A stretch of DNA of 64,000 bases from Bacteroidota bacterium (lineage in GTDB: Bacteria; Bacteroidota; Bacteroidia; AKYH767-A; 2013-40CM-41-45). Shown piece after piece: positions 7,272-59,943 of this stretch (positions are counted from its first letter, which is position 1; each line of letters begins with the position of its first letter). The stretch is from the NCBI GenBank assembly GCA_031417555.1, contig JANOVV010000028.1:77984-141983 (forward strand), in the 5' to 3' direction. Under the pieces are notes generated by a model. It was not told the DNA's origin. It saw nothing but the letters and a program-made list of their open reading frames with translations, and ran no database searches. The position numbers and the translations under genes were made by a program.

Positions 7272-7421
7272 GAATTAATTTGTTTTGAGTTTAATTTCTG
7301 CGTTTTACAGTGTATAATATTCAGTAAATTATGTAAATATTTTTGAAAATTTTGTAATTACCTAAATACTTGTTTTACTCATCTTTGTATTGTTAATTAA
7401 ATAGAATAAAAATTAATAGTT

Positions 7422-7613
7422 ATGAAAAAGTCATTTTACAAAAAACCCGGATCTGCAACTATTGACTTACTGGATTATAATCTTAAGACCAGATATCCTT
7501 TTCTATATAATAGTGTTGGTGGTGAATATATTCACAATCTTTTAATTGATTTATATGGAGTATCAAAAAAGACTTTAACTCAATCGAGAAGATCCATTGC
7601 TACCCAAATGTAA
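7422..7613 (+). CDS. hypothetical small protein
   Basis: 63-aa ORF followed by an intrinsic terminator. Confidence 0.25.
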   Translation: MKKSFYKKPGSATIDLLDYNLKTRYPFLYNSVGGEYIHNLLIDLYGVSKKTLTQSRRSIATQM

Positions 7614-7660
7614 TAATGACAATGTAAACAAGAATTTTATTTTCATGTGTGGTTTTGTTA

Positions 7661-7690
7661 AAAGTCCTCGTGGTGGAGGACTTTTTTTTG
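7661..7690 (+). terminator. rho-independent terminator
   Basis: agtcctc-gtggtg-gaggact followed by a T8 run. Confidence 0.65.
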
Positions 7691-7726
7691 TTCTTATAAA
7701 TTGACTATCATTTTCTTTCTATAAAT

Positions 7727-8659
7727 TTGATAAAATTATCTGAAATGAAATTAAATAGAATTAAAAAAATTGTGTGGAAGCTGTTGAAGGAATCACTAAA
7801 TGGATTTATAGATGATAATGCAATTAAATTAAGCGCATCACTTTCTTATTATACAATTTTTTCTCTGCCACCATTGCTAATTATTATAATTGGATTGGCA
7901 GGTATTTTTTTAGGAGAAGAAGCAGTAAAAGGGGAAATCTTCTGGCAAATTAATGGTCTTGTTGGAAATGATGCTGCACTGCAAATTCAGGATACGATAA
8001 AAAATGTAAAACTATCCAGCAGTAATGTTTTTGCCACAACAGTTGGAGTAATAATACTTCTGGTCGGTGCATCAGGTGTATTTGCTGAAATTCAGGATTC
8101 CATTAATTATATTTGGGGAATTAAGGCAAAACCAAAACGTGGTTTTATAAAATTCATTAAGAACCGCCTAATGTCTTTTTCTATGATTGGTTCTGTTGGT
8201 TTTCTTCTGCTGGTTGGATTGATTATAAATTCAATTATGGACGTACTAAACAAACGATTAGCAGTAAATTTCCCGGTTGATTCAATATATTTTTTCTATA
8301 TCACAAACATTATAATCGTTTTTATTATAATAACTATACTATTTACTATAATTTTTAAGACCTTGCCGGATGGTAATGTGGCAATAAAAGATTGTCTTAT
8401 CGGTTCTTCTTTTACCGCTGTATTATTTATGATTGGAAAATTTGCTATTGGCGCTTACCTTGGCAGTTCAGCAGTTGCTTCAATATATGGTGCTGCAGGG
8501 TCTGTTATATTGATTCTCGTCTGGGTATATTATTCAGCAATCATTCTTTATTTTGGCGCTGAATTTACAAAAGTATATGCGCTTGCACACGGTAAGAAAA
8601 TTATTCCAAACGAATATTCCGTGCAAATTATAAAAGAGATTATTGAAATTGATAAATAA
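7727..8659 (+). CDS. YihY/BrkB (virulence factor BrkB / tRNA-processing RNase BN-like) family inner-membrane protein
   Basis: N-terminal LSASLSYYTIFSLPPLL motif and six predicted TM helices, typical of this family. Confidence 0.7.
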   Translation: MIKLSEMKLNRIKKIVWKLLKESLNGFIDDNAIKLSASLSYYTIFSLPPLLIIIIGLAGIFLGEEAVKGEIFWQINGLVGNDAALQIQDTIKNVKLSSSNVFATTVGVIILLVGASGVFAEIQDSINYIWGIKAKPKRGFIKFIKNRLMSFSMIGSVGFLLLVGLIINSIMDVLNKRLAVNFPVDSIYFFYITNIIIVFIIITILFTIIFKTLPDGNVAIKDCLIGSSFTAVLFMIGKFAIGAYLGSSAVASIYGAAGSVILILVWVYYSAIILYFGAEFTKVYALAHGKKIIPNEYSVQIIKEIIEIDK

Positions 8660-8900
8660 ATCCTTCAATAATTTGTTTTAGAAATTTTATTATCTTGATT
8701 AATTAATTTGTTGTGCTTTATTTTCTGTATTAATATGATTTTTATCATATTTTATAATGTAACCTTTTATGCTCTTTTTGTTCAGTTTCAAATCTTTAAA
8801 TTGAAACAATGTGAATTGTGCAAAACATTGTATTAATTGTGTAATGCAAAATTAGTTGTGCTGGCTGATCTTTATATATAAATTATATATAATATCTGTC

Positions 8901-12034: not shown

Positions 12035-12862
12035 ATGAAAAAAACAATTAAAATTGCAGTACTTACTATTATTGGAAGTATTGGCTTGTCAAATGCACAA
12101 ACACCTGCAGTTGTTTACAGCGATAAAACCGGATGGCATAAAATCGGTGAAACTACGGTTGATTTTAAAAGAGATCGTGATGAAATTAAGATTATTGGAG
12201 CAGATCGATTTGCTGCAATACAATTAAAAGTTGAAGATGCTCCAATTGATTTAATTTCATTGGAAGTGTTTTATGAGAGTGGCGATAAACAAGACATTGC
12301 GGTCCACTCTCCGATTCAAGCTCATGGGGAAAGCCGTATCATTGATTTAAACGGTGGAGAAAGAAGTCTGGACAAGATAGTGTTTGTTTATAAAACACTT
12401 CCAAACAGAAAAGATGAAAAAGCGGAGATCGAAATATGGGGATTAAAGACTAATACAAATGAAAAAATGGCATCTGGTAGTGAGAAAGAGGTTAACACAA
12501 GTTTGATGGTTAATGATCAAAAAGGATGGCATAAAATCGGTGAAAGGTCTGTTGATTTTGTAAAAGATCACGATGAATTTGTAGTAATAGGAGCCGATCG
12601 TTTTTCTGCTATTAAATTTCGCGTAACTGAAGCAGCGATTCAATTAATGAATTTAAAAGTTTACTACGAATCGGGAGATATGCAAAATATTCCTGTTAAT
12701 TCACCTGTTTTAGCTGGAACTGATAGTAAAGCTTTTGATTTGAATGGTGGAGAAAGAAATTTAAAGAAAATTGTATTTGAATATAAAACTCTTCCAAATC
12801 AGAAGGCTGAAAAGGCTTTTGTTGCTCTTTGGGGATTAAAAACAAATATGGTTGTGAGATAA
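12035..12862 (+). CDS. lipoprotein made of two tandem copies of a ~125-aa domain (possibly DUF2541/YaaI-like)
   Basis: Signal peptide. The segment GWHKIGE..VDF..D.DE...IGADRF.AI...V..A.I.L..L.V.YESGD.Q.I.V.SP......S...DLNGGER.L.KIVF.YKTLPN.K.EKA....WGLKTN occurs twice. Confidence 0.5.
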   Translation: MKKTIKIAVLTIIGSIGLSNAQTPAVVYSDKTGWHKIGETTVDFKRDRDEIKIIGADRFAAIQLKVEDAPIDLISLEVFYESGDKQDIAVHSPIQAHGESRIIDLNGGERSLDKIVFVYKTLPNRKDEKAEIEIWGLKTNTNEKMASGSEKEVNTSLMVNDQKGWHKIGERSVDFVKDHDEFVVIGADRFSAIKFRVTEAAIQLMNLKVYYESGDMQNIPVNSPVLAGTDSKAFDLNGGERNLKKIVFEYKTLPNQKAEKAFVALWGLKTNMVVR

Positions 12863-14882: not shown

Positions 14883-15518
14883 TCAGGATATTTCTTTTAA
14901 ATAACATTCATTACTATCAATATTTATTTTTTTAAATTTCATAATTTTCAAAAATTGAATATGATTTTTATTAATTACTCCTTTGTAAACAATTTTTTTT
15001 ACACCTTTTGATTTTAAGTATTCATTTTCTTTGTCAAAAATAAATCTTCCAACTTTGTAATCACGGTATTTAGGCACTGTATAGTTTATTTTTACATAAG
15101 CAATTCCTTCCGAAGTATATTTTGCTACAAAAATGTTAGCGAAAGCTAAATCTCTTAATACAATAAATCGCAACTCATTTTCTTTATCCTGAAGAGAAAA
15201 ATCCGGAAAAAATGCATGTATGTCTTTTTGATAAAACGAATAATATTTTTGAATAAGAGGGTCGTTTGGAAGAAATTCAATTAAATCAAAATCTTCGTCC
15301 GTATTGTAAATTTTTATTAAATAATATATGTTAATGCATAAAAGAAAACTATTTGTTATAATTATAGGAAGAGCATCAATCATTAATCCGTATAAAATGA
15401 ATGAAAGTGATCCCAGGCTATTTAACCAGCGAAACCGGATTTCGTTATTAACTAAAAGTGAAACAGCTAAAAGAATAAAAGCAATATATCCAAGGATAAC
15501 AGGTAAAGTTTCTTTCAT
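14883..15518 (-). CDS. hypothetical membrane-anchored protein with a possible C-terminal GNAT-like fold
   Basis: Two N-terminal TM helices. C-terminal ...YTVPKYRDYKVGRFIF...EYLKSKGVKKIV resembles an acyl-CoA N-acyltransferase core. Confidence 0.3.
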   Translation of the reverse strand: MKETLPVILGYIAFILLAVSLLVNNEIRFRWLNSLGSLSFILYGLMIDALPIIITNSFLLCINIYYLIKIYNTDEDFDLIEFLPNDPLIQKYYSFYQKDIHAFFPDFSLQDKENELRFIVLRDLAFANIFVAKYTSEGIAYVKINYTVPKYRDYKVGRFIFDKENEYLKSKGVKKIVYKGVINKNHIQFLKIMKFKKINIDSNECYLKEIS

Positions 15519-15834
15519 CTCTATATTTTTATAATTGAAAATATTAAAACAAAATAATCAAAACGCATCAGCTGAAAAATGCGTGTCGCTAATGTTAGAA
15601 AAATTATTCATAAATCATAAAATTATTCAAAATTCAGCTTTTAACAAGTTATTCTTTAATTAATCAAAAATTTATCTTGACAATACTATTATTATAATCT
15701 ATATTGCATAATAATTAAACAATGAAACATTTAATCGCATATACGCTTTGCACATCTTGTTGTCGTTCCCACGAGAGTATCGTTGTGGTGGACAATGATA
15801 ATTGTGTTTAAGTTTAAAAACATATCTCTAAGAA

Positions 15835-15865
15835 GAGCTCCACCAACAGGTGGAGCTTTTTTTTT
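15835..15865 (+). terminator. strong intrinsic terminator inside the 5' leader of the cysM-like operon; candidate attenuator or riboswitch expression platform
   Basis: gagctccacc-aaca-ggtggagctc with a 9-bp GC-rich stem and a T9 run, 12 nt before the ATG at 15877. The upstream stretch gttgtggtgga can pair with the 5' arm, giving an alternative antiterminator. Confidence 0.6.
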
Positions 15866-15876: not shown

Positions 15877-16812
15877 ATGATAGACTCAAAATATATAATA
15901 GATACGACTTTGTTGCGGAAGGCAGAAGCTTTAAGCAAGCAAATTGGCAATACGCCTGTGCATCAGTTTCGGCATTGGAAAAATAGAAATATCAGGGTAT
16001 TGGCTAAGATGGAGTGGAAGCAATTATCGGGTAGTGTAAAGGCCAGAGCAGCGTATTCCATAATTTTAAGTGCCATTCGAGAAGGGAGATTAACACAAGG
16101 CAAGCATTTGTTAGATGCTACAAGCGGAAATACAGGTATTGCCTACGCTGTAATCTGTAAAAAATTAAACCTTAGAATTACCTTATGCCTACCGGAAAAT
16201 GCTTCACAAGAAAGGAAAGACATACTTAATGAGCTGGGAGTAGATATCGTTTTCACATCACCCTTTGAAGGAACAGATGGCGCTCAGGAAACTGCACTGG
16301 AATTATTCAATCAAAATCAGTCAAAGTATTTTTATGCAGATCAATACAAAAATCAACAAAATTGGAAAGCGCATTATTATACTACTGCACCTGAAATTTT
16401 AATGTCTGTGCCCGGTATTACCCATTTTGTTGCCGGACTTGGAACTACAGGAACATTTACAGGAACAGGAAGAAGACTCAAAGATTCAAATCAATCAATA
16501 AAACTCATTTCTCTACAACCCGATTATCCATTGCATGGCATGGAGGGTTGGAAACATTTAGAAACAGCTGTCGTTCCTGCTATTTATGATGCCGGATTAG
16601 CAGATGAAACGGAATTAATCAGTACCGAAGAAGCCTATTTAACTATTCGTACTATTTTTAAACAAGATGGTATTTTATTAAGTCCCTCTTCAGCAGCAAA
16701 TCTTGCCGGTGCTTTTCGTATTGCAGAAAAATCCGAAAATAATATAGTGGTAACTATTTTACCTGATAATGCAGATAAATATAAAGAAGTAATTAAATTT
16801 CTGAATTTATGA
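15877..16812 (+). CDS. cysM: PLP-dependent cysteine synthase family protein (CysM-like sulfhydrylase, presumably using the carrier thiocarboxylate as sulfur donor)
   Basis: Fold-type II PLP enzyme motifs (...KMEWKQLSGSVKARAA...; ...TSGNTGIAYA...; ...GTTGTF.GTG...). Forms an operon with the JAMM, MoaD-like and E1-like genes. Confidence 0.7.
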   Translation: MIDSKYIIDTTLLRKAEALSKQIGNTPVHQFRHWKNRNIRVLAKMEWKQLSGSVKARAAYSIILSAIREGRLTQGKHLLDATSGNTGIAYAVICKKLNLRITLCLPENASQERKDILNELGVDIVFTSPFEGTDGAQETALELFNQNQSKYFYADQYKNQQNWKAHYYTTAPEILMSVPGITHFVAGLGTTGTFTGTGRRLKDSNQSIKLISLQPDYPLHGMEGWKHLETAVVPAIYDAGLADETELISTEEAYLTIRTIFKQDGILLSPSSAANLAGAFRIAEKSENNIVVTILPDNADKYKEVIKFLNL

Positions 16813-17243
16813 TACACATAGAAGATGAAGCTTTAGAAGAAATGTTTGAAGATGCTTTACATGGCTTCCCATTTGAATGTTGCGGATTTTTATTCGGTGT
16901 TGCGGAAAATGATAATCGTTCGATCAAATTAATAAAGCGGGTAACCAATATTAGTAAAGAAGATCAGAGGAGGAGATTTTCAATCAGTTCAACCGATTAT
17001 ATTCTGGCTGAAAATTATGCCGAGGAAAACAATCTTTCATTACTAGGCATTTACCATTCACATCCAAATTATCCTGCTATTCCTTCCGAAACAGATCGAT
17101 TGTCTGCCCAGCCCTATTTCTCATATGTAATTATATCAATTTTAAATAAAAAGATTTCACATGTTCGGTCGTGGAGGTTAAATGATCAAAATCAATTCGA
17201 CGAAGAAATAATCAGACAAAGCATTTCATCAACAAAAAAATAA
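16809..17243 (+). CDS. JAMM/MPN+ (Mov34) family metalloprotease (Mec+/QbsD-like)
   Basis: Motifs E...HSHPNYPAIPSETD (HxHx7Sx2D). Overlaps cysM by 4 nt (ATGA). Confidence 0.75.
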   Translation: MIHIEDEALEEMFEDALHGFPFECCGFLFGVAENDNRSIKLIKRVTNISKEDQRRRFSISSTDYILAENYAEENNLSLLGIYHSHPNYPAIPSETDRLSAQPYFSYVIISILNKKISHVRSWRLNDQNQFDEEIIRQSISSTKK

Positions 17244-17252
17244 ATTATAAAA

Positions 17253-17534
17253 ATGGCAACTATTATTATCCCAACACCTCTACGAAAATTTACCAATAAC
17301 AGTAGTCGTCTTCAATTGAAGGCTAATTCCATTCAAGAAGCGGTAAGCGAACTTACTCTCAATTTTCCCGACCTGAAAAAGCATTTGCTTGATGAAAATG
17401 GAAAACTGAGAAGTTATATAAACGTTTTTGTTGGTAATGAAGATATCCGTAATCTTCAACAAGAGGAAACGGTGGTTCAACACGATTCTGTTATAAGTAT
17501 AATCCCTGCGATTGCAGGAGGTTTATTTATCTAA
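17253..17534 (+). CDS. cysO: MoaD/ThiS/CysO-family sulfur-carrier protein with a C-terminal extension (…AGG-LFI)
   Basis: 93-aa beta-grasp-sized protein ending ...IIPAIAGGLFI. The Gly-Gly sits 3 residues before the C-terminus. Confidence 0.65.
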   Translation: MATIIIPTPLRKFTNNSSRLQLKANSIQEAVSELTLNFPDLKKHLLDENGKLRSYINVFVGNEDIRNLQQEETVVQHDSVISIIPAIAGGLFI

Positions 17535-17556
17535 AATATTTTTAAAATTAAAAACT

Positions 17557-18720
17557 ATGAGTAATCAGAATATTCAATTTTCAAAAGATGAATTAGCCCG
17601 TTACAATCGACATATTATTATTCCTGATTTTGGAATTGAAGCACAGAGAAAATTGAAAGAGGCAAAGGTTTTAGTTATTGGCTCTGGTGGACTAGGCAGT
17701 CCGCTGCTACTATATCTTGCAGCTGCCGGTGTGGGTACACTTGGTATTGTTGATTTTGATGTTGTAGATGATAGCAATCTTCAACGTCAGGTATTGTTTG
17801 GTGTAGAAGATGTTGGGAAACCTAAAACAGAAGCGGCAAAGAAGCGCTTGCAATCTTTGAATCCATTTATAAAAATTAATACATATAACACTCGTATTAC
17901 CTCCGCTAATATTTTAGAAATTCTAAATGAGTATGATTTAGTAGCCGACGGTACGGATAATTTTCCGACGCGTTATTTAGTAAATGATGCAGCTGTGCTA
18001 TTGGGAAAGCCAAACGTGTATGCTTCAATCTTTCAGTTTGAAGGGCAGGTTTCTGTTTTTAACTACAAAGATGCAAATGGAAAATTAGGACCGAACTATC
18101 GCGACTTGTATCCATTGCCGCCACCTCCGGGATTAGTTCCCAATTGTGCTGAAGCAGGAGTTTTAGGCGTTTTGCCGGGTATCATTGGAAGTTTGCAAGG
18201 GCTTGAAGTTATTAAAGTAATCACAGGAATAGGGGAAACATTGAGCGGACGGTTTTTCACCTTTGATGCGCTCACTTTTGAAACAAGGACTTTTAATATA
18301 AACAGGAACCCTTCTAATCCTTTAAACGGAGAAAATCCGACAATTAAAACACTGATAGATTATGAAGCATTTTGCGGATTAAAAGGAGAAATAGAAAAAC
18401 CCCTGAAAGAAATTTCAGTGAATGAACTCTACGAATGGCAGGTGAGGGGCGATGATTATCAGTTGATCGATGTTCGTGAGCCTCATGAATTTGAAATTGC
18501 CAATATCGGAGGCGAACTATTTCCTTTGGCATCAATAGCAGCTGTTGCAGATAAAATTTCTCGTGAAAAGAAAGTTGTCATTCATTGCAAAATGGGTGGA
18601 AGAAGTGCCAAAGCTATTAGGCAATTACAGGATGAATTTGGTTTTGATAATTTGTACAATCTAAAAGGTGGAATAATTAAATGGATAGATGATATACAAC
18701 CTGAATTAAAAAAGTATTAA
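17557..18720 (+). CDS. moeZ: MoeZ/MoeB-type E1-like adenylyltransferase with a C-terminal rhodanese domain (activates the sulfur carrier by thiocarboxylation)
   Basis: ThiF nucleotide-binding GSGGLGS motif, a CxxC-less E1 core, and a C-terminal rhodanese ...HCKMGGRSAKA... with active Cys. Start chosen at the internal Met 17557 to avoid overlapping cysO. Confidence 0.75.
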   Translation: MSNQNIQFSKDELARYNRHIIIPDFGIEAQRKLKEAKVLVIGSGGLGSPLLLYLAAAGVGTLGIVDFDVVDDSNLQRQVLFGVEDVGKPKTEAAKKRLQSLNPFIKINTYNTRITSANILEILNEYDLVADGTDNFPTRYLVNDAAVLLGKPNVYASIFQFEGQVSVFNYKDANGKLGPNYRDLYPLPPPPGLVPNCAEAGVLGVLPGIIGSLQGLEVIKVITGIGETLSGRFFTFDALTFETRTFNINRNPSNPLNGENPTIKTLIDYEAFCGLKGEIEKPLKEISVNELYEWQVRGDDYQLIDVREPHEFEIANIGGELFPLASIAAVADKISREKKVVIHCKMGGRSAKAIRQLQDEFGFDNLYNLKGGIIKWIDDIQPELKKY

Positions 18721-18754
18721 AATATATTATTTCAATCGCATATATATAAAACTG

Positions 18755-19336
18755 ATGGAAATTTTTACTGATATAATACAAATACTAAAACAGCCATGGC
18801 CCTGGTATGTAGCTGGACCTATTATTGGTATTTGTGTGCCGCTTCTTTTATTAGCGGGTAACAAATCGTTAGGAATATCATCATCTTTAAGAGAAATTTG
18901 TGCTGCAATTATTCCTGGTAAAGTCGCTTTCTTAAAATTTAACTGGAAAGCTCAAAAGTGGAATCTTGTATTTATTTTAGGATTGGTTGTCAGCGGATTT
19001 GTTGGAGGCGTATTATTGAAAAATGATGAGCCTGTAAATATTGCAGCATCAACGAAAGCGATGCTTATTGAATATGGCATAACCGATCAAAGTGGCATTA
19101 TGCCTACATCGGTTTTCAATTTTGAATCATTGTTTAATGTTAGTGGGTTTATTCTTATCGTGATCGGAGGTTTCCTAGTTGGATTCGGAACCAGATGGGC
19201 TGGAGGGTGTACTTCCGGTCACGGTATTTTTGGATTGGCTACATTTCAAATACCATCACTCATTGCTACAATTACTTTTTTTGCTTTTGGCATTCTTACC
19301 AGCTGGTTTTTATTACCTGTCATTCTTAAGTTGTAA
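18755..19336 (+). CDS. YeeE/YedE-family sulfur-compound (thiosulfate) transporter, first half
   Basis: ...GTRWAGGCTSGHGIFG... motif and 4-5 TM helices. Confidence 0.65.
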   Translation: MEIFTDIIQILKQPWPWYVAGPIIGICVPLLLLAGNKSLGISSSLREICAAIIPGKVAFLKFNWKAQKWNLVFILGLVVSGFVGGVLLKNDEPVNIAASTKAMLIEYGITDQSGIMPTSVFNFESLFNVSGFILIVIGGFLVGFGTRWAGGCTSGHGIFGLATFQIPSLIATITFFAFGILTSWFLLPVILKL

Positions 19337-19357
19337 TACATCTAAAAAATATTTTCA

Positions 19358-19762
19358 ATGATCAGATATTTCTTTATTGGCTTATTATTTGGTCTGGCAT
19401 TAATTAAGGGAGAAGCAATTTCCTGGTATCGTATGCAAGAGATGTTTCATTTTCAGGGATTTCAGATTTTCGGTTTTTTCTTTACTGCTGTACCGACAGC
19501 TGCATTGTTACTTTTCCTGATCAAAAAATTTAATGTTAAGACAACAGGTAAAGAGGAATTGAAACCGAAGAAAAAATATTTTAACAAAGGAACGGTGTAT
19601 GGATCCGCACTTTTTGGGATCGGCTGGGGATTGACAGGTGCTTGTCCGGGACCCATATATGTTCAAATAGGAAGCGGATATTTTATTTCAATAGTCTTAT
19701 TGCTAAGTGCTCTGGCCGGAACCTGGGTATATGCTTTTTTCCGAGAGAAGCTGCCGCATTAA
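19358..19762 (+). CDS. YeeE/YedE-family transporter, second half
   Basis: ...GWGLTGACPGP... motif. Confidence 0.65.
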   Translation: MIRYFFIGLLFGLALIKGEAISWYRMQEMFHFQGFQIFGFFFTAVPTAALLLFLIKKFNVKTTGKEELKPKKKYFNKGTVYGSALFGIGWGLTGACPGPIYVQIGSGYFISIVLLLSALAGTWVYAFFREKLPH

Positions 19763-20345
19763 ATATTTAAGTTTGATTTTTTTAATCATTTAGATTGGAT
19801 TGATATTCCATTCTTGATTCTAGTATTTTATTCTTTTAATATAGTGAAAAAGTTTCATGTCATTTTTTGTTACTTTTTGCTAAATAGTTTTTGAATTCTA
19901 TCTGATAATCTTGTAATCAAGTCCGATCCCATCAATTATTTCTCAGAAGTTTAATGAAATATGATATTTGAATTAATGTTCAATTCTTTGAAACAATTTT
20001 TTCATCTTTTGTTGTTAAAATGAATTTTAAATTTCATTTACCAATCTAAACCATACGTTTACAAAATTTGCTATATTATTTTTTCCTCAATCGATCTGTA
20101 ATAATTTGATAAAAACGATCTTCGTTGCTTAAAATTCAAATATTGCAAATCCTTAAACCCCACTATTTAAAGGCCTTTTGACGATTTTATTTCCAAAAAC
20201 TCGATTAATTTAGTTAAAATATTTTTTTTTAAAAAATTATCCTTGATAATATACTTGCATACATATTAAACCAATTTTAGAAAAGTTGTGATAATTCCTC
20301 ACAACCATATTTAATAATTAAAATAAACAAATATAAAATATACCC

Positions 20346-23300
20346 ATGCAAAAAATCACTACTCAACTTTTGTTTTATTGTTGTGAAAAAAGATTAACTC
20401 GAACAATTCCTGTAATCTTACTCCTCATTAATTTTGCAATTAATGTACCGGAATCATTTGGTCAAAGCCAATCGATTAGTACACCTGGTGTATCAATCGG
20501 AGGTAGTTCTACTACCGGCTCAGTATCGGCCGGAATTCCAAATTGTGTTCCACCAATATGTACAATTTCAGGAAGTACTTCAATTTGTCCTGGAACGGCA
20601 ACCACATTATGTGCGCCAGTAGGCCTTGCAGCTTATTCGTGGAGCACCGGTTCTACAGCTCAGTGTATTTCCGTTACAACACCCGGCACTTACATTGTAA
20701 CTATTACAGCTGTAGGTGGGTGTACGAGTACATGTAACATTACTGTAACTACAGCAACAGCACCAATATCAGGTAGCGGTTCTATTTGCAGTGGTGGTTC
20801 TACGCAATTATGTTCTGTGGCAGGTGCAAGTTCATATTCCTGGAGCACAGGAGCTACGACACAATGTATTACGGTAACAACAGCCGGTACTTATTCAGTC
20901 ACTACATGTATTAACGGTTGTTATATCACAAGCAGTAAAACAGTAACAGTTGGTTCTGTTTCTTGCTCAATCACTGGTAATAGTACAATTTGCTCGGGTG
21001 GATCCACTTCTCTATGTGCACCCTCCGGACTCTCTTCATATTCCTGGAGTACAGGAGCAACAACAAAATGTATTACTGTAAGTTCAGCTGGTACATATAC
21101 AGTAACTGTGTCTAACGGTGGATGTACAAGTAGTTGTAGTAAGACAGTAACAGTTCGACCAGCTTTAAATTGTACAATTACCGGAGCATCTTCTTTTTGT
21201 CAGGGGGGCTCTACTCAGCTTTGTTTGCCTACGGGTTATCAATCTTATTCATGGAATACAGGTGCAACTACACGTTGCATTACAGTAACATCCGCAGGAA
21301 CATATTATGGAAACGTTAATGATGGTACATGTAATAAAACTTGCAGCAAGGCTGTAACCGTTACATCTGTCAATTGTTCGATTACGGGAAGCAGTTCTAT
21401 TTGTCCGGGTACAACAACACAATTATGCGGACCGGCTGGACAATCATCTTATTCATGGAGCACAGGTTCAACATCACAATGTATAACAGTTGGTTCAAGT
21501 GGTACATATACATTAACAGTCACCAATGGAGGTTGTACTAGTAGTTGTTCTAAAACAGTTACTGTAGGTGCAATAAGTTGCAGTATTACTGGAAGCAGTA
21601 CAATTTGTGCCGGAGGCTCAAATCAATTATGTGCACCTGATGGAATGGCAACTTATTCGTGGAGTACCGGAGCAACAACACAATGTATTATTGTAAACAA
21701 TTCAGGTAATTATTCTGTTACCATCACCAATGGCAGTGGTTGCAGCAGTTCGTGTAGTAAATCAGTTTCTCTTAATAATACTTTAAGTTGTAATATAACA
21801 GGTACAACAGCAATTTGTCCGGATGGTACGACACAACTTTGTGCACCAGCAGGAATGGCAACTTATTCATGGAGTACAGGAGCAACTACACAATGTATAT
21901 TTGTAAGCTCTGCATCAACATATACTGTAACAGTTACTGATGGAAGTGGATGCAACAGCACTTGTTCAAAATCGGTAACAATAATTAATACAGATGATGG
22001 CAATGCATGTACTATAGATGCTTGTAATCAGCAAACGGGCGGCGTAACACATACTGCAGTAAATACAGATGATGGTAATGCCTGCACAGTTGATGCCTGC
22101 AATATTCAAACCGGAGTAATAACTCATACTTATGCAAGCATTGATGATGGTAATCCGTGTACCATTGATGCTTGTAATTCATTAACGGGTGGTGTTACGC
22201 ATACAGCTGTTAATACAGATGATGGCAATGCTTGTACAATCGATGCTTGTAATATTCAGACGGGAGTAATAACTCATACAGCAGTAAATACAGATGATGG
22301 CAATCCATGTACCGTAGATGCTTGTAATGTACAAACAGGAGGAATTACTCATACAGCGGTAAATACTGATGATGGCAATCAATGTACTATTGATGCATGT
22401 AATTCGTTAACGGGAGGTATTACACATACAGCAGTAAATGTTGATGATGCAAATGCATGTACAATTGATGTATGTAATTCTATAACAGGCATTACTCATA
22501 CAGCTGTTTCAACTAACGATAATAATGCTTGTACATACGATGGTTGTGATCCTGTAACAGGTGTATTTCACAATACAATCAACTCAGATGATAACAATCC
22601 GTGTACAATAGACAATTGTAATTCATTAACAGGAATTACTCATACAGCAGTCAACCCTGACGATGGCAATGTTTGTACGACGGATGGTTGTAATACGGCG
22701 ACAGGAGTATTTCATATTTCGGTTTCTGTAAATGATAACAACCTGTGTACAATTGACGGTTGTGATCCAATTACCGGCATATTCCACATATTAAAAAATA
22801 CGGATGATGGAAATGCTTGTACAATAGATGCCTGTAATAGTGTTTCAGGAGCGATTACGCATGTGCCTGTAAATATAAACGACAACAATGCTTGTACCAC
22901 TGATGCTTGCGACCCGATAACCGGAATCATTACATATGTATTGGTTTCTACTGAAGACGGCAATGCTTGTACAATAGATGGTTGTAATTCGATAACGGGT
23001 GTAACTCATGTTCCGGTTTCTACCAATGATAATAATGCCTGTACGTTTGACGGTTGTGATCCTGTGCTTGGAGTATTTCATAATACAATAAGTTCTGACG
23101 ATAACAATCCATGTACTTTAGATAATTGTAATCCGGTAACAGGTATTTTCCATACGGCAGTTGATCCAAACGATGGTAATGTTTGTACAACAGATGGTTG
23201 TAATACTGCAACAGGAGTATACCATATTTCGGTTTCAGTTAATGATAATAATCTATGTACAATAGATGGTTGTGATCCTGTTAACGGAATATTCCATATC

Positions 23301-26300
23301 TTAAAAAATACTGATGATGGAAATGCATGTACAATTGATGCTTGTAATTCTCTTACAGGTGCAATTACACATGTTCCGGTAGTAATAAATGATAACAATG
23401 CTTGTACGACAGATGCTTGTGATCCTGCTACCGGAGTAGTCACACATATTCAGCTTTTAACAGATGATGGCAATGCCTGTACAATTGATGATTGTAATAT
23501 TTTTACAGGGGTTACACATGTACCGGTATCCACTAACGACAACAATGCTTGCACGTTTGATGGTTGTGATCCGGTTTTAGGTGTATTCCACAATACGATT
23601 AGTTCAGATGATAATAATCCTTGTACAATAGATAATTGCAATGTTTCAACAGGTGTATTCCACACTCCAGTTAATCCGGATGATGCTAATGTTTGTACTA
23701 CGGATGGTTGTAATTCAATTACAGGAGTATTCCATATTTCACTTTTGACCAATGATAATAACTACTGTACGATTGATGGCTGTGATCCGATAACAGGAAT
23801 TTTTCATACTCCGGTAAATGCGGATGACGGCAACTCTTGTACGGAAGATAATTGTATTCCGGCAAATGGTTCGATTACTCATGTTCCATTCAATGTAAAC
23901 GATAACAATCCGTGTACAATTGATGCATGTAATCCTGCTTTTGGAAACATTACACATGTTCCGGTAATTACTGATGATGGCAATCCTTGTACAATTGATG
24001 CTTGTAATTCTTTCTCAGGAGTAGTTACGCATTTAGCGGTTATTATAAACGATAACAATGCTTGTACAATGGACGCTTGTGATCCATTTAACGGGAATAT
24101 TACACACATGGCAGTATTTATAGATGACGCTAATGCTTGTACCAACGATTTTTGTAATTCTATTACAGGAGGTATAACTCATCCGGCAATTATAATTAAC
24201 GATAACAACGCTTGTACTGTTGATGCCTGTGATCCTGCAACCGGAAATATTACACATGCCCAAATAATTACCGACGACGGAAATAAATGTACCATTGATG
24301 CATGTAATTCCTCTACCGGTGCAATTACGCATGTTGTTATTAATCCAAATGATAATAATCCTTGTACAGTAGATGCTTGTGATCCTATTACCGGAAATAT
24401 TACAAATATTCCCGGAATTACGGATGATGGTAATGCTTGTACAATAGATGCATGTAATCCGGCAACAGGTGCAGTTACACATGTTGTAAAAGATGTTGAC
24501 GACAACAATGCATGTACGGTTGATGCTTGTAATCCTTCTACCGGAAATATTACTCATACACTTGTAATTACCGACGACAGCAATGCGTGTACAGTTGATG
24601 CTTGTAATTCTGCAACCGGCGCAATCAGCCATGTTGTTGTTGATCCAAACGATAATAACGCTTGTACGGTTGATGCATGTAATCCTTCAACGGGAAATAT
24701 TACACATATACAAACAATTACCGATGATGGTAATGCCTGTACAATTGATGCTTGTAATACTGAAACCGGTGCTGTTACACATGTTGTTAAAAATGTAAAT
24801 GATAATAATGCTTGCACGGTCGATGCTTGTAACCCTTCCGACGGAAATATAACTCATACACTTATAATTACAGATGATGGCAATAAATGCACAGTGGATG
24901 CTTGTAATTCTGCAACGGGTGCAGTTACCCATGTAGTTAAAGATGTCGACGATAATAATGCATGTACTTTAGATGCTTGTGATCCTTCCGACGGAAACAT
25001 TACACATACACTTGGAATTACTGATGATGGCAATGCTTGTACTGTTGATGCCTGTAACTCTGCCACCGGAGCAGTAACCCATGTAGTAATTGATGTTGAT
25101 GATAGTAACGCATGTACAGAGGATGCCTGTGATCCTTCCAACGGAAATATTACACACACACTTGGAATTACTGATGATGGTAATGCTTGTACTGTTGATG
25201 CTTGTAATACGGCCACAGGAGCCGTAACGCACATGGTAATAGGTGTAGATGATAAGAATGAATGTACGGTAGATGCTTGTGATCCTGCAAATGGAAATAT
25301 TTCGCACAATGCAGTCATTACCGATGATGGTAATGCTTGTACAATCGATGCTTGTAATTCAGCCACAGGAGCAATAACACATGTGGTTATAAATGCAAGT
25401 GATGACAATGCTTGTACAATAGATGCTTGTGATCCTGCTTCAGGTAATATCACTCATATTACATTTAATACAAATGATGGTAATGCGTGTACAATCGATG
25501 GTTGTAACCCATTAACAGGAGAATTTCATATTCCGGTATCAACGGAAGATAACAACCTTTGTACTTTTGATGGTTGTGATCCTGTCCTTGGTGTTTTCCA
25601 TAATGCAGTTAACTCAAATGATAATAACTTATGTACAGCAGATGGTTGTAATTCGCTTACAGGAATTTTCCATACTACAATAGATCCTAATGATAACAAT
25701 GTTTGTACAACTGATGGTTGTAACACTTTAACCGGTGTTTTCCATATTTCAGCCTTAACAAACGACAATAACGCATGTACAATCGATGGTTGTGATCCGA
25801 TAACTGGTATTTTCCATACTCTTAAAAATGCTGATGATGGTAATGCTTGTACAATTGATGCTTGTAATACAGCAACAGGAGCAATAACACACGTTGTTGT
25901 TGTTACAAACGATAACAATGCTTGTACAGTTGATGCTTGCGATCCGGCTACAGGATTTATTACTCATAATGCAATTAGTATTGATGATGGTAATGCTTGT
26001 ACAGCTGATGCATGTAATACAACTACAGGTGCTATTACACATGTTGTTGCAAATACTAACGATAACAATGCATGTACAATAGATGCTTGTGATCCTGCTA
26101 CCGGATTCATAACTCATGCATTTATTAATACCGATGATGGCAATGCTTGTACAACTGATGCTTGTAATTCAGTTACCGGTTCAATTACACACGTTCCCGT
26201 TAATATCAGTGATAACAATGTATGTACTACCGATGCTTGTGATCCATTAACTGGATTTATCTTACATACAACTTTAAATCCCGATGACGGCAATGTTTGT

Positions 26301-29300
26301 ACTATTGATGCTTGTAATTCAATTACCGGAATAACACATGTTCAGGTTTCTTCAAACGATAATAACGCATGTACCTTTGATGGATGTGATCCGATACTGG
26401 GCATATTCCACAATACCATCAGCTCGGATGATAACAACCCTTGTACAATCGATAATTGTAATTCAATAACAGGAATATCTCATACTACTGTTAATCCTGA
26501 TGATGGCAATGTTTGTACAATAGATGCTTGTAACACAATAACAGGAGTAACTCATACTTCAGTCGCAACTAACGATAACAATGCATGTACTATCGACGGT
26601 TGTGATCCTGTTACCGGAATATTCCATATAGCTAAAAATACCGATGATGGTAATGCTTGTACCGTTGATGCATGTAATACTTTAACAGGTGCTATTACAC
26701 ACATTGTTGTAAATACAAATGACAACAATGCTTGTACCGTTGATGCTTGTGACCCTTCTACAGGATTTATTACTCACACAGCTATCAGTATTAATGATGG
26801 TAACGCTTGTACTGTTGATGCTTGTAATTCATCTACTGGTGATATTACTCATGTTCTTGTAAATGTAAACGACGGCAATGCATGTACTCTGGATGCTTGT
26901 GATCCTGTTACTGGCTTCATAACTCATAATGCTATCAGTATAAATGACGGCAATGCTTGTACTGTTGATGCTTGTAATTCAGCAAACGGCGACATTACGC
27001 ATGTGCTTGTAAATGTAAATGATGGTAATGCTTGTACAGCCGATATTTGTGATCCGGCCACAGGGTTTATTACTCATCCGTTTATAAATACTGATGATGG
27101 TAATGCATGTACAGTTGATGCCTGTAATTCAACTACTGGAGCTATCACACATGTTGTTGTAAATACAAACGACAACAACGCATGTACAATAGATGCTTGT
27201 GATCCTGCTACAGGATTCATAACTCATACAGTTATTAATACAGATGATGGTAATGCTTGTACTATTGATGCTTGTAATTCAGCTACAGGTTCAATTACAC
27301 ATGTCCTTGTTAATATTAACGATAACAATGCATGTACAACTGATGCCTGTGATCCAGCGACAGGATTTATCACTCATACATTTTTAAATCCTGATGATGG
27401 TAATGTTTGTACCATTGATGCTTGTAATTCAATCACCGGAATAACGCATGTTCAGGTTTCTTCAAACGATAACAATGTTTGTACATTTGATGGTTGTGAC
27501 CCAATAACAGGTGTGTTCCACAATACAATCAGCTCTGATGATAACAACCCTTGTACAATCGATAATTGTAATTCAATAACAGGAATATCACATACTTCAG
27601 TTAACCCTGACGATGGCAATGTTTGTACAATAGATGCTTGTAACTCAATAACAGGAGTAACTCATACTTCAGTTGCAACTAATGATAACAATGCATGTAC
27701 GATCGACGGTTGTGATCCTGTTACCGGTGTTTTCCATATCGCTAAAAACATAGACGATGGTAATGCATGTACAGCCGATGCTTGTAATTCAGCCACTGGT
27801 GCGATCACTCATGTTTTTGTTAATACAAACGACAATAACGCATGTACTGTCGATGCTTGTGATCCTGTTACAGGAATAATTACCCATGTTGTCATAAGTA
27901 TTGATGATAATAATGCATGTACAGCGGATGCTTGTAATTCAATCACAGGATTGGTTACTCATACCAATGTCATTACTGATGATGGCAACCCTTGTACGAA
28001 TGATGTTTGTAATCCTTTTACAGGCATAATTACTCATACAGCTACTATTACAGATGATGGTAATCCTTGTACAATTGATGCTTGTAACTCAGTTACAGGA
28101 GGAGTTACCCATACAGCTGTAAATACGGATGATGGTAATGCTTGTACTACAGATGCTTGTAATCCTGCAACTGGCGCAATTACTCATACAGCAGTTAATA
28201 TCGACGACAGCAACCCTTGTACAATTGATGCATGTAATTCTGTAACAGGAGGCATAACTCATACAGCTGTAAATACGGATGATGGAAATGCTTGTACAAC
28301 GGATGCTTGTAATCCTTCTACAGGTGCTATCACTCACATAGCAGTAGTTACTGATGATGGTAATGCTTGTACGGTTGATGCTTGTAATTCAAGTACTGGT
28401 GTAATCACTCATACAGCTTTGAATACGGATGATGGAAATGCTTGTACAACGGATGCTTGTAATCCTTTAACAGGTGCTATCACTCATACAGCAGTTGTTA
28501 TAGATGATAATAATGCTTGTACAGTTGATGCCTGTAATTCAGTAACAGGTGTAATAACTCATATTGCAAATCAACCAACCACTTGTACAATAACTGGTAA
28601 TAGTGATATATGTTTTTCAGGAAATACAACTTTATCTGTCTCGAATGTGGGATCATATTTATGGAGTACAGGTCAAACTACTTCATCAATAACTGTTACT
28701 TCTGCAGGTTTATACTCTGTAATTGTTACTAGCAACAACGGTTGCAGCAGTACTTGTTCACTTACAGTAACTTCTCATAATTGTGGAATTACTCTTAGAA
28801 AAACGCCGGATAAGTGTGAATTTCCTGATGGCGTTCCAACTTTAGTAAATTTCGAATATGTTGTAAAGAATAATTTGACAAGTGGTTTCAGTGCGTCAGG
28901 TATCTTAACAGATGATAATGGTACTCCGTTAAATAAATTGGATGATGTATTAGTTTGTAATTGGGGACCAATTATTCCCGGAGACAGTACAATTTGTTAT
29001 AAAGCATTTACAATATCAAGTACCTATACAAATATTGCAATAGCTTCCGGAACTTCCGGAGGAGCATCGGTTTCAGCAATTGCTACTGCTACTGTAAAGG
29101 GCGTGAATTGCAATTGTAATCTTAACTACCCCGACAACTCAAATTTACCTCGCTCTGCTGTAATTTTTAACGAAAGTGAAATTTTGAGAACCTCAGAACC
29201 AGGTCCAACATCTTGTGCTACTTTAGGATCAAAGATTAAACTTTGGTATAATGATGAACATGCTATGTTACTTGGTATTAAATCGGTTAGCGTAAAAACT

Positions 29301-32154: not shown

Positions 32155-32796
32155 TCACTTAAACCTCCCTTTAAACTCTCTTTTAAATTCCAGAAAATCC
32201 GGTATTGAAACATTTTTAACATAGGAATTGTCGGGATGATTTAAAATGTATTCCTGGTGGTAATCTTCTGCCGGATAAAATTTTGAAAAAGATTTTACCT
32301 CTGTAACAATTTTATCTGAATATTTTTTAGATTCTGATAAGCGTTTAATTTCAGATTCGATAATTTCTTTTTCTTTTTCATTGCGATAGAAAGCAACAGA
32401 ACGGTATTGTGTACCACGGTCGTTGCCTTGTCTGTTAAGTGTGGTAGGATCCATACTCGTAAAAAATGCAGAGACTAAGGTCGCATAAGTGATTTTTGAA
32501 GGATCGTAATATACCTGTACAACTTCAGCATGTCCCGTATTTCCATTGCATACATTTTCATAATTCGGATTAGGATCTGTTCCTCCTGAATAACCCGATA
32601 CGGCATCTCTTACACCTTCTAGGCTTTGAAAAACAATTTCCGAATGCCAGAAACACCCTTCACCAAAAGTTGCTATTGCTTCCTTAGAACCGGGATTGCC
32701 CTTGATGCCTGCTGGAATAGTTTCATTCTTAGTATGAGTTTGTGCACACGAATAAAAAGTGGCAAATGAAATTAATACTATCAATATACTTTTCAT
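32155..32796 (-). CDS. msrA: peptide-methionine (S)-S-oxide reductase MsrA with a signal peptide (periplasmic)
   Basis: GCFWHSE active-site motif (GCFW..E) and ...GYSGG.... N-terminal signal MKSILIVLISFATFYSCAQ. Confidence 0.85.
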   Translation of the reverse strand: MKSILIVLISFATFYSCAQTHTKNETIPAGIKGNPGSKEAIATFGEGCFWHSEIVFQSLEGVRDAVSGYSGGTDPNPNYENVCNGNTGHAEVVQVYYDPSKITYATLVSAFFTSMDPTTLNRQGNDRGTQYRSVAFYRNEKEKEIIESEIKRLSESKKYSDKIVTEVKSFSKFYPAEDYHQEYILNHPDNSYVKNVSIPDFLEFKREFKGRFK

Positions 32797-32821
32797 AATC
32801 TTAATTTTTTAAAATTGGTTT

Positions 32822-33358
32822 TTATTTAGAACTAACCGGAGGTTTTCCTCCTTCGGGAACAAAAATAAGTGCATCCGAATTCATGCAATATCTTTTACCG
32901 GTAGGAGCCGGGCCATCATCGAAAACATGACCGAGGTGTGAGCCGCTTTTACTGTCTACAACTTCTATACGTTCCATGCCTATACTCCCGTCTTTTATCA
33001 AACGAACTGCATCAGGGTTTATAGGTGAATAAAAACTTGGCCAACCTGTACCCGAATTAAATTTAGCTTCTGAACTGAATAATGGCTGCAAAGTAGCCGC
33101 TGAATAGTAGGTTCCTTTTTCGTAAAAGTGGTCGTATTTTCCTGTGCCCGGTCTTTCCGTTCCTTTATTCCTTAGTATATAATATTGTTTGTCTGTAAGT
33201 CTTGCTTTCCATTCAGCATCACTCATTTGCATCGGATAAATGGTTGTTTTTTCAGCAAGAGGAGGATCCGGATATTTTGCATTTTTAGATTGTGAAAATG
33301 AACAACTGTTATTTAGAAAAATAAATGCTGTTAAGAGAATGGATGTCAGTGTTTTCAT
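32822..33358 (-). CDS. msrB: peptide-methionine (R)-S-oxide reductase MsrB with a signal peptide
   Basis: ...GTGWPSF... and HLGHVFDDGP...RYCMNS motifs (catalytic Cys in RYCxN). Signal peptide. Confidence 0.85.
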   Translation of the reverse strand: MKTLTSILLTAFIFLNNSCSFSQSKNAKYPDPPLAEKTTIYPMQMSDAEWKARLTDKQYYILRNKGTERPGTGKYDHFYEKGTYYSAATLQPLFSSEAKFNSGTGWPSFYSPINPDAVRLIKDGSIGMERIEVVDSKSGSHLGHVFDDGPAPTGKRYCMNSDALIFVPEGGKPPVSSK

Positions 33359-44687: not shown

Positions 44688-44732
44688 TTAAATTAATTTT
44701 TGAATAATACAGTTGAAATAAACAATAAGAAA

Positions 44733-48728: not shown

Positions 48729-48729
48729 A

Positions 48730-49179: not shown

Positions 49180-49192
49180 TTTTTAATTATTT

Positions 49193-50602: not shown

Positions 50603-50603
50603 T

Positions 50604-51771: not shown

Positions 51772-51787
51772 TTTTTATTTTTTATTA

Positions 51788-53920: not shown

Positions 53921-53923
53921 AAC

Positions 53924-54121: not shown

Positions 54122-54210
54122 TTTTAATTTAAATTATTTTTTTTGGATCAGACAAACATATTTAGGTCTAAACATTATTAGCATGAGGTTTATTATTTTT
54201 AAACATGATA

Positions 54211-57984: not shown

Positions 57985-57991
57985 TTAAAAA

Positions 57992-59753
<1,762 letters not shown>

Positions 59754-59886: not shown

Positions 59887-59943
59887 TTTAAAAAAAACTA
59901 TTGAGTTAATATAAATATAGATTAACATTTAAATCATTCGAAA

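Follow-up and report, generated by a model that had tools for sequence, protein, structure and literature searches.

A poly-cysteine leader with attenuator anatomy precedes a putative CysO-type cysteine operon in Bacteroidota

The 64,000-nucleotide stretch of Bacteroidota DNA analysed here (contig JANOVV010000028.1; hereafter, the window) carries, at 15877-19762, genes for a CysM-like enzyme, a JAMM protease, a CysO-like sulfur carrier, a MoeZ-like E1-rhodanese protein and a pair of YeeE/YedE-type transporter proteins. We conclude that these genes probably form a single operon that makes cysteine via a protein thiocarboxylate and is switched on by cysteine starvation. The conclusion draws on the conserved order of the core genes, on an upstream leader open reading frame (ORF) with cysteine codons followed by a predicted terminator, and on a carrier that appears to be made as a precursor.

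Gene arrangement and related loci

The ORF listing of the window contains six ORFs that lie head to tail on the plus strand:

15877..16812, plus strand: cysM-like sulfhydrylase dependent on pyridoxal 5′-phosphate (PLP), 311 amino acids (aa); PALP domain, E = 7e-55
16809..17243, plus strand: JAMM/MPN+ metalloprotease, 144 aa; Prok-JAB domain, E = 8e-23
17253..17534, plus strand: CysO-like sulfur carrier precursor of the ThiS/MoaD fold, 93 aa; ThiS/MoaD family
17557..18720, plus strand: moeZ-like E1 adenylyltransferase with a C-terminal rhodanese domain, 387 aa from ATG
18755..19336, plus strand: YedE1/PmpA-like half-transporter, 193 aa; Sulf_transp
19358..19762, plus strand: YedE2/PmpB-like half-transporter (DUF6691), 134 aa; Sulf_transp and DUF6691

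The four core genes are contiguous on one strand with spacings of -4, 9 and 22 nucleotides (nt), and the cysM and JAMM genes overlap by ATGA. The content and order of the six genes, with coordinates, domains and overlap, are as described in an initial annotation of this DNA. Upstream, the transcription unit appears to extend some 200 nt beyond cysM, taking in a promoter-like site, a leader ORF and a terminator (15677-15865).

Species-level relatives were collected by scanning species-representative genomes with the CysM-like protein as the query, which gave 63 loci (referred to below by L numbers). The order cysM-JAMM-cysO-moeZ was kept in essentially all loci long enough to show it; L001, L017, L025, L032 and L062 are incomplete, being short or at a contig end, and L031 is without a JAMM match. 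Such recurrence means that the gene arrangement is not due to chance. The nearest relatives are unclassified Bacteroidota metagenome-assembled genomes (87, 73 and 69% identity). Five loci are from Thermoplasmatales archaea, with CysM identity of 40-43%, and most of the others are from Bacteroidota, where the hosts include Chitinophagaceae, Saprospiraceae, Lewinellaceae, Flavobacteriales, Cryomorphaceae, Cyclobacteriaceae, Flammeovirgaceae and Balneolales. At two loci, Paraflavitalea speifideaquila (L036) and Puia sp. P3 (L060), cysM, carrier and moeZ were matched as frame-shifted pieces between 6000 and 9000; these may be either pseudogenes or assembly indel errors, both genomes being complete. 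Genes for CysK, CysE, SerC and sulfate assimilation were found neither in the 64-kb window nor as recurrent neighbours of the related loci.

The operon type corresponds to row 4c in Table 1 of Iyer, Burroughs and Aravind (2006), an entry marked as uncharacterized that has Salinibacter ruber among its species (PMC1779556). The statement of the initial annotation that the pathway is not usually discussed for Bacteroidota therefore needs qualification: the operon type was catalogued in 2006 and is common in this phylum, and a 2022 review still describes mycobacterial CysM as "found only in actinobacteria" (PMC9547175). The wide presence in Bacteroidota is under-appreciated and not new in principle.

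The leader region upstream of cysM

Inspection of the DNA preceding cysM revealed the following elements:

15677..15705, plus strand: promoter-like site (TTGACA, 17-nt spacer, TATATT), 11 of 12 consensus positions, a consensus match only
15722..15811, plus strand: leader ORF MKHLIAYTLCTSCCRSHESIVVVDNDNCV, 29 codons, four of them Cys
15745..15813, plus strand: hairpin 1:2 (putative anti-antiterminator), 5′ arm holding the Cys13-Cys14 codons, 3′ arm GUGGUGGAC; present in the minimum free energy fold
15784..15848, plus strand: putative antiterminator, in which 15784-15792 (UGUGGUGGA) pairs with 15839-15848, the terminator 5′ arm and loop
15830..15865, plus strand: predicted intrinsic terminator, a 15-bp hairpin with core AGCUCCACC / GGUGGAGCU at 15836-15857 and nine U at 15857-15865

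The leader Cys codons are C10 (15749-51), C13-C14 (15758-63) and C28 (15803-05), and the terminator ends 11 nt before the cysM ATG. The promoter-like block is conserved in L001 and L002. Folding of the leader region yielded -46.2 kcal/mol (z = -5.07, 200 shuffles). When RNA to about 15774 was masked in constrained folds, as it would be by a stalled ribosome, the antiterminator formed, with a duplex energy of -12.5 kcal/mol. The element thus appears to have the anatomy of a classical attenuator with cysteine as the regulatory amino acid.

Upstream regions of the relatives contain the same kind of element. In 44 of 60 of these regions a leader ORF has from 3 to 8 Cys codons in a row, ranging from CCC to CCCCCCCC (for example, MNQAFAHTACCCCCCRQAMVIMVEDVLL and ...SCCCCCCCC), and in 45 loci the leader stop was followed, 21-46 nt on, by a hairpin and a T-run. 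The 26 kb of sense upstream DNA held 43 runs of four or more TGY codons, versus 17 in the approximately 1.3 Mb remainder, both strands counted; several of the 17 are further leaders, before peroxiredoxin genes or the transporter pair. The window leader aligns column for column with poly-Cys leaders (CCCCCC) of relatives and shares with them the invariant blocks GUGG(U/G)GG and GCUCCACC...GUGG(A/G)GCUUUUUU, and we read it as a degenerate member of the family.

A covariance model (R1) was built from 16 sequences. Its single match in the window was at 15722-15864 (120 bits), and it found the element before cysM in many loci outside the training set, as well as before inserted peroxiredoxin or transporter genes. 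Among 35 aligned relatives the terminator helix was 100% paired, with compensatory changes in 7 of 9 pairs and a covariation reached by 0 of 500 shuffles; this alignment was fitted to the model and hence leans towards that structure. For the antiterminator, the model-based alignment does not keep region 2 in register across lineages, and column-wise covariation was therefore replaced by a comparison of duplexes with shuffles. Complementarity between the terminator 5′ arm and the post-Cys segment in 45 loci exceeded that of dinucleotide shuffles (mean z = -1.67, Wilcoxon p = 3e-9), with p < 0.05 at 18 of the 45 loci taken individually, the loci not being phylogenetically independent. Terminator arms that differ by lineage (GCUCCACC, GCCUUUCC, GCCCUUCGG) have matching upstream complements.

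Searches of the whole window and 10 loci with Rfam 15 at the gathering threshold gave zero matches; in E-value mode only sub-threshold, terminator-driven matches were seen, such as Phe_leader (21 bits; cutoff 55). Leader ORFs with Cys codons have been reported elsewhere. Poly-Cys leader ORFs without terminators precede cys operons of Actinobacteria (PMC1262725); those of M. smegmatis are cysteine-responsive attenuators in which two consecutive Cys codons suffice (bioRxiv 10.1101/834739); and a two-Cys-codon upstream ORF with a terminator precedes cysS of Rhodobacterales (PMC8632094). No published description of a Bacteroidota Cys leader was found in the literature covered, which was incomplete, and the poly-Cys terminator/antiterminator leader of Bacteroidota has probably not been described before.

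Some relatives show variations of this layout. Tandem poly-Cys leader ORFs lie at most 450 nt upstream of cysM in nine loci (L023, L024, L035, L039, L043, L044, L049, L055 and L057); each apparently has its own hairpin, and together they look like tandem attenuators. Mixed Met and Cys leaders, such as MMCCCC and MCFCCMMCCC, occur in L011, L055, L057 and L058, and the leader of L021 (5868-5987) has Met codons and no Cys run, with the RNA helices kept. These Met-containing leaders suggest a shift in the sulfur amino acid that is sensed. At L025 (180-860) a poly-Cys leader and terminator stand before a gene for a beta-carbonic-anhydrase-like protein (Pro_CA), whose product could in principle hydrolyse carbonyl sulfide or CS2. 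A second candidate leader in the window, a minus-strand run of five Cys codons at 36416, lies antisense inside a 3496-aa ORF and was rejected.

The carrier precursor and the JAMM protease

The best solved homolog of the carrier is M. tuberculosis CysO (3dwg_C, E = 2e-10), followed by the Amycolatopsis CysO-like carrier 4n6e_B. The carrier ends in ...AIAGG-LFI, that is, Gly89-Gly90 (codons 17517-17522) are followed by Leu-Phe-Ile. The carrier C-terminus could be read in 59 relatives: tails of 1-7 residues follow Gly-Gly in 39, 15 are fused to the E1 and 5 stop directly after Gly-Gly, so that a tail or an in-frame E1 fusion follows Gly-Gly in 54 of 59. The fusions have a short linker after Gly-Gly (for example, AIAGG-APDEITFTPEELARYNRH) and were found in L004, L008, L011, L018, L019, L020, L024 and L054-L061, at about 7370-8870 in each; they include every one of the five archaeal loci in which the carrier C-terminus is readable. 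The tail at L051 is Cys-Cys-Cys (about 8117).

The protease contains the JAMM motif (Glu23 and H83-S-H85-x7-S93-xx-D96). Its best solved homolog is 2kcq_A of the Mov34/MPN/PAD-1 family (E = 3e-22), a Salinibacter ruber protein. Adenylation needs a free Gly-Gly carboxylate, as established for ThiS, MoaD and CysO, and exposure of Gly-Gly is how QbsD matures QbsE and HcyD matures HcyS. Since a tail or fusion buries Gly-Gly in the carriers studied here, we infer by analogy that the co-encoded JAMM protease must mature the carrier, besides a Mec+-like hydrolysis of the carrier-Cys adduct. The fusions imply that it would free the carrier from a carrier-E1 polyprotein.

The CysM-like enzyme and the E1-rhodanese protein

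The product of the first gene is a fold-type II PLP enzyme (PALP, E = 7e-55). Among NCBIfam models the best score was obtained with TIGR01138 cysM (277 bits), followed by cysK (228), CBS (170), SbnA (161) and threonine synthase (36). The enzyme is therefore a member of the CysK/CysM family, nearest to CysM, with no close relation to threonine synthase or CBS, the affiliations that the initial annotation had considered damaging to its assignment. The PLP lysine Lys55, the TSGNTG loop (82-87) and GLGTTGT (187-193) are invariant when aligned with the CysM proteins of M. tuberculosis and E. coli.

The E1 protein consists of a ThiF domain (E = 1e-79) and a C-terminal rhodanese domain (E = 3e-11). 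GSGGLG is at 42-47, Cys197 lies in NCAEAG, and the rhodanese catalytic Cys, on which the initial annotation had made its proposal depend, is present as Cys344 in the CKMGGR loop. The protein scored 465 bits with the MoeZ model and 478 bits with the MoeB model PRK07411, both under their cutoffs. None of the four zinc-ligand cysteines is present in the Bacteroidota protein of the window, PNYRDL and NPSNP replacing CxxC...CxxC; the latter is present in archaeal homologs (L054, L056 and L059) and in E. coli MoeB. A TTG at 17512 was rejected as the moeZ start and the ATG at 17557 preferred, with relatives aligning from residue 1 of the ATG form.

The transporter pair and the peroxiredoxin

Two accessories recur around the four-gene core. 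The transporter pair is one of them and lies outside that core: 8 of the 64 operons have it, downstream in the window, L002 and L003 and upstream in L027, L030, L031, L032 and L034, with L031 holding only a partial copy. The first protein (193 aa) matches Sulf_transp profile positions 257-306 of 310, the C-terminal part, and the second (134 aa) matches positions 10-103 of 310, the N-terminal part, as well as DUF6691. Conserved cysteines are Cys152 in GGCTSGHG of the first and Cys96 in TGACPG of the second. With the TsuA model, whose cutoff is 400 bits, the two proteins scored 29 and 17. PmpA/PmpB and YedE1/YedE2 form a known two-subunit class, whose members each correspond to half of YeeE and have a single conserved Cys (PMC11582611). 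The pair belongs with this class rather than being a broken gene, as "split" in the initial annotation could be read, and its order, C-half-like then N-half-like, is the reverse of that expected from a recent split of a full-length gene.

The YedE1E2 proteins of Cupriavidus and Sinorhizobium speed uptake of polysulfide and elemental (zero-valent) sulfur, and the long YeeE/TsuA-type proteins of E. coli and Cupriavidus were inactive in the same zero-valent sulfur assay (PMC10812762). Long TsuA imports thiosulfate and requires YeeD (PMC7449682, PMC11073785). We found no gene for a YeeD/TsuB (TusA-like) partner, there being no further plus-strand ORF of at least 50 aa in 19762-20346 or inside the operon. 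Thiosulfate as the sulfur source, proposed initially, is thus not well founded, given zero-valent sulfur as the only substrate tested for the class, the lack of a YeeD gene and the occurrence of the pair in 8 of 64 operons. The better-supported guess, by analogy, is that the transporter would import sulfane sulfur, which could load rhodanese Cys344 directly. M. tuberculosis MoeZR has thiosulfate sulfurtransferase activity with a Km that its authors called unphysiological (PMC3227635).

The pair of the window starts 34 nt after moeZ with no terminator between, and at L027 it follows a poly-Cys leader (MNQFQAGCCCCFFD) and terminator of its own (L027 4440-4600). Because of this co-transcribed layout in the window lineage and the separate Cys leader in L027, the pair appears to be functionally tied to the operon. 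Identity to proteobacterial (Cupriavidus, Sinorhizobium) matches was 35-40% over 48-65% of the query. A protein-level search of plasmids also found the pair on Runella and Hymenobacter plasmids, annotated as YeeE/YedE and DUF6691, the Hymenobacter pair adjoining an ArsR-family regulator, TauE and a rhodanese; a DNA-level plasmid search with the transporter genes gave one weak Runella match.

Besides the transporter pair, clustering of flanking ORFs revealed a single recurrent accessory, a 1-Cys peroxiredoxin (AhpC-TSA and 1-cysPrx_C domains), at nine loci:

L019 5132-5773, L029 5179-5856, L045 1389-2045 and L046 5287-5940: peroxiredoxin between leader and cysM
L011 9080-9718, L055 8914-9552, L057 8859-9497 and L058 8817-9506: peroxiredoxin directly after moeZ
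L027 9095-9742, minus strand: peroxiredoxin downstream, on the opposite strand

This placement fits a link between the cysteine route and oxidative stress.

Proposed pathway and alternatives

The regulatory steps proposed here are drawn from sequence and comparison, the chemical ones from family membership and the M. tuberculosis precedent. Transcription would start near 15712 and first cross the 29-codon leader ORF. With ample Cys-tRNA(Cys), the ribosome would reach the leader stop, hairpin 1:2 and the terminator at 15830-15865 would form, and transcription would end before cysM. With scarce Cys-tRNA(Cys), the ribosome would stall at Cys13-Cys14, freeing GUGGUGGA to pair with the terminator 5′ arm and allowing read-through. 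The JAMM protease would remove Leu-Phe-Ile and expose the carrier Gly-Gly, the E1 domain would adenylate the terminal glycine, and a persulfide on rhodanese Cys344 would turn the adenylated carrier into carrier-COSH. The CysM-like enzyme would form PLP aminoacrylate from O-acetyl- or O-phosphoserine and add the thiocarboxylate; after an S-to-N acyl shift, JAMM would hydrolyse carrier-Cys, releasing cysteine and regenerating the carrier. The heterodimeric importer of the YedE1E2/PmpAB type would probably bring in sulfane (zero-valent) sulfur, possibly thiosulfate, to load the rhodanese. The chemistry of the M. tuberculosis CysO pathway was reportedly reconstituted by Burns et al. in 2005. That pathway is the precedent used here (PMC3227635).

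Cysteine is the likely end product because the whole unit, including carrier and E1, is placed behind one Cys-codon attenuator. The neighbourhood points the same way: MoaE, ThiG and tRNA-thiolation genes were not recurrent among the flanking ORFs of the related loci, and no AMP-ligase, CoA-transferase or O-acetylhomoserine sulfhydrylase (MetY) neighbours were found at the loci. The initial annotation had allowed that the carrier might equally belong to a siderophore or molybdopterin system, and the Cys leader argues against both. Its pathway assignment stands as far as domains, motifs, conserved order and the Cys-codon leader are concerned; its thiosulfate source is weakly founded, and equivalence to the M. 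tuberculosis enzymes is looser than it implied.

A number of observations weigh against cysteine synthesis by this route. The 277 bits of the CysM-like enzyme with TIGR01138 are below the curated equivalog cutoff of 394, and every NCBIfam match of the operon proteins is below such a cutoff; the best names are desampylase for the JAMM protein and SAMP1 for the carrier, which a conjugation role would fit. The PLP enzyme is nearer to E. coli CysM (37%, 191 bits, HMMER) than to M. tuberculosis CysM (33%, 147 bits), as judged from pairwise scores only, the M. tuberculosis reference sequence having been confirmed against PDB 3dwg_A before alignment. At the position of M. tuberculosis Arg220, an O-phosphoserine determinant, it has Lys226, where E. 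coli CysM has Arg210; positive charge is retained, and this residue does not by itself distinguish O-acetylserine from O-phosphoserine as the acceptor. Lys226 lies inside a clade motif, HGMEGWKHLET (220-230; LHGMEGWKHLETA), shared without change by Bacteroidota and Thermoplasmatales and not present in the M. tuberculosis and E. coli enzymes. The alignment also showed that the C-terminal tail of M. tuberculosis CysM is missing. With 33% identity, Lys226 and no such tail, the enzyme is not a close relative of M. tuberculosis CysM, and orthology is not indicated. That it would use a protein thiocarboxylate is suggested by the operon context, which is invariant across relatives, and not by sequence signatures; for the operon clade as a whole, the assignment is built on sequence and on the M. 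tuberculosis analogy. Relatives have CCCCCC in the leader, compared to which the C-x2-CC and one late Cys of the window leader are much weaker. Finally, 56 of the 64 operons have no transporter, and the substrate presumed for the latter is taken from distant proteobacterial homologs.

Some of these observations would suit an ordinary O-acetylserine sulfhydrylase B that acts on sulfide or imported thiosulfate (making S-sulfocysteine, as in E. coli), with the carrier, E1 and JAMM proteins serving tRNA thiolation, molybdopterin synthesis or SAMP/Urm1-like conjugation. E. coli CysM is the closest solved homolog of the PLP enzyme, Lys226 and the missing tail separate the latter from M. tuberculosis CysM, SAMP-activating E1 stands beside desampylase and SAMP1 among the best NCBIfam names, and M. 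tuberculosis MoeZR also serves molybdenum cofactor synthesis (PMC3227635). It is hard to see, however, why four genes of unrelated function would keep together in one order, frequently with translational coupling, in essentially all loci long enough to judge, from Bacteroidota to archaea. The carrier and E1 are also behind the single Cys-sensing attenuator, MoaE, ThiG and tRNA-thiolation genes do not recur nearby, and most operons have no transporter. We therefore consider this explanation unlikely.

A thiocarboxylate route leading to another product, whether homocysteine/methionine (HcyS type), a thio-siderophore (Qbs/Pdt type) or a thio-cofactor, would use the same trio of carrier, E1-rhodanese and JAMM proteins, as Wolinella does in methionine synthesis. 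The trio is also found in the synthesis of thioquinolobactin and PDTC (PMC1779556, row 4a), and the Met and Cys leaders of L011, L055, L057 and L058 and the Met-only leader of L021 could be taken in its favour. Such a product is very improbable, the regulatory codons being overwhelmingly Cys, the PLP enzyme scoring best as CysM/CysK and not as MetY or a siderophore enzyme, and the AMP-ligase, CoA-transferase and O-acetylhomoserine sulfhydrylase neighbours being absent. That the Cys-rich ORF encodes a functional peptide, metal-binding (as poly-Cys peptides could be) or a precursor of a ribosomally synthesized and post-translationally modified peptide, with the hairpin merely its terminator, can practically be dismissed: the C-terminal part of the window peptide, IVVVDNDxC, is conserved in L001-L003, but between lineages the peptide is unconserved except for the Cys run and the nucleotide blocks of the alternative helices are conserved, the terminator is 21-46 nt past the stop, immediately before cysM and on the same strand, the upstream segment co-varies with the terminator arm, the tandem copies are as in other attenuators, and modification enzymes were not found nearby.

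Cysteine synthesis through the carrier thiocarboxylate thus remains our preferred explanation. A broader, joint reading, to which we commit only tentatively, is that Bacteroidota have a self-contained module that converts imported sulfane sulfur to cysteine without free sulfide, under an undescribed class of poly-Cys attenuator and with the carrier made as a precursor, and that Thermoplasmatales share the operon and not the leader. If this were true, carrier-E1 fusions cut by JAMM would be a prokaryotic parallel to the processing of ubiquitin fusion precursors by deubiquitinases, and the two accessories, YedE1E2 and 1-Cys peroxiredoxin, would be clues to the physiological sulfur donor and to a role in oxidative stress.

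Other genes of the window

Downstream of the operon, 20346-30806 and 34197-44687 (plus strand) encode two giant proteins, 3486 and 3496 aa long. Cys makes up 6.9% (240 residues) of the first, which has dozens of approximately 27-aa repeats of the DDGNACTxDACN type and, as judged by eye, a stretch similar to type IX secretion C-terminal sorting domains; a functional link of this Cys-rich protein to the operon was considered and rejected, as L002 and L003 do not share the synteny. Genes of the PorP/SprF and OmpA families (44700-45680 and 45698-47881) come after the second. Adjacent methionine sulfoxide reductase genes msrA (PMSR) and msrB (SelR) are at 32155-33358 (minus strand). A cbb3-type oxidase cluster at 48036-56628 (minus strand) encodes a fused CcoN/CcoO, CcoP, a FixG-like ferredoxin, FixH, a DsbD_2-family membrane protein and a copper-type P-ATPase, and indicates an aerobic or microaerobic lifestyle. 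The region 57247-61916 contains genes for a ScdA/RIC-type di-iron protein, cytochrome c, a second hemerythrin-domain protein and two tandem beta-eliminating lyase paralogs of 476 and 459 aa. Upstream of the operon, a terminator-like hairpin with a T-run (15563-15584, minus strand) lies in the 5′ region of the divergent gene 14883-15518, which encodes a membrane protein with weak YgjV/SemiSWEET similarity, and 12035-12862 (plus strand) encodes a secreted protein with two tandem DUF2541-like domains.

Significance

The operon type has been listed since 2006, and no new principle is involved. The window and its 63 relatives represent what is probably a conserved version of the CysO-type route across Bacteroidota, as against reviews that confine the route to actinobacteria (PMC9547175). 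The cysteine-sensing leader would provide regulatory evidence for the product that is independent of homology, would add cysteine to the amino acids under classical attenuation and, as a simple marker, could help to find genes of Bacteroidota that are regulated by cysteine. To the probably undescribed leader can be added the carrier tails and carrier-E1 fusions that are widespread among the relatives. Recruitment of a YedE1E2-type importer by some operons, once behind its own Cys leader, makes sulfane sulfur a testable candidate for the donor.

Comparison with known systems

The CysO/CysM/Mec+/MoeZ system of M. tuberculosis comprises the same four protein types as the operon of the window, and both are linked to leader ORFs with cysteine codons (10.1101/834739; PMC1262725). 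The four genes are contiguous in the window, whereas in M. tuberculosis moeZ is elsewhere and the operon contains ClpS and a helical protein (PMC1779556, row 4d). Mycobacterial leaders have no terminators and act by sequestration of the Shine-Dalgarno sequence or another route, in contrast to the predicted intrinsic terminator and antiterminator of the window. The window enzyme, 33% identical to M. tuberculosis CysM, has Lys226 and no C-terminal tail in place of the Arg220 and tail of the latter, and the window carrier is a GG-LFI precursor whereas M. tuberculosis CysO ends in GG.

Residues after Gly-Gly of the carrier are also a feature of QbsC/D/E (thioquinolobactin) and HcyS/D/F (Wolinella methionine synthesis), where JAMM trims the carrier before activation. 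The Qbs and Hcy systems thus resemble the window in having a carrier extended past Gly-Gly and a JAMM partner; they feed a siderophore or homocysteine via an AMP ligase or MetY, whereas the partner in the window is a CysM-family enzyme behind a putative Cys attenuator. Type 4c of Iyer and coauthors (ThiS/MoaD, E1-rhodanese, JAB and cysteine synthase) is identical in gene content to the core of the window, and its entry is without leader regulation, carrier tails or fusions, and transporter or peroxiredoxin accessories (PMC1779556).

PmpA/PmpB of Serratia and YedE1/YedE2 of Cupriavidus and Sinorhizobium are, like the pair of the window, adjacent half-YeeE genes with one conserved Cys each; the first subunit of the window has 193 aa with an inserted loop, compared to about 130 aa in the PmpAB/YedE1E2 class. 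The window pair is inside a putative biosynthetic cysteine operon, and the Hymenobacter pair in a persulfide-stress cluster (ArsR / rhodanese / TauE). The YeeE (TsuA)-YeeD system of E. coli and Spirochaeta belongs to the same superfamily (Sulf_transp, PF04143), but TsuA is one polypeptide of approximately 330-350 aa with nine helices and three conserved Cys that needs YeeD (PMC7449682, PMC11073785), whereas the window has two short proteins.

Classical attenuators (trp, his and leu, and the Bacteroid-trp motif) likewise have a short ORF with codons for the end product, followed by mutually exclusive antiterminator and terminator helices. The leader described here differs from them in its regulatory codon, cysteine, in its Bacteroidota host and in matching no Rfam 15 family.

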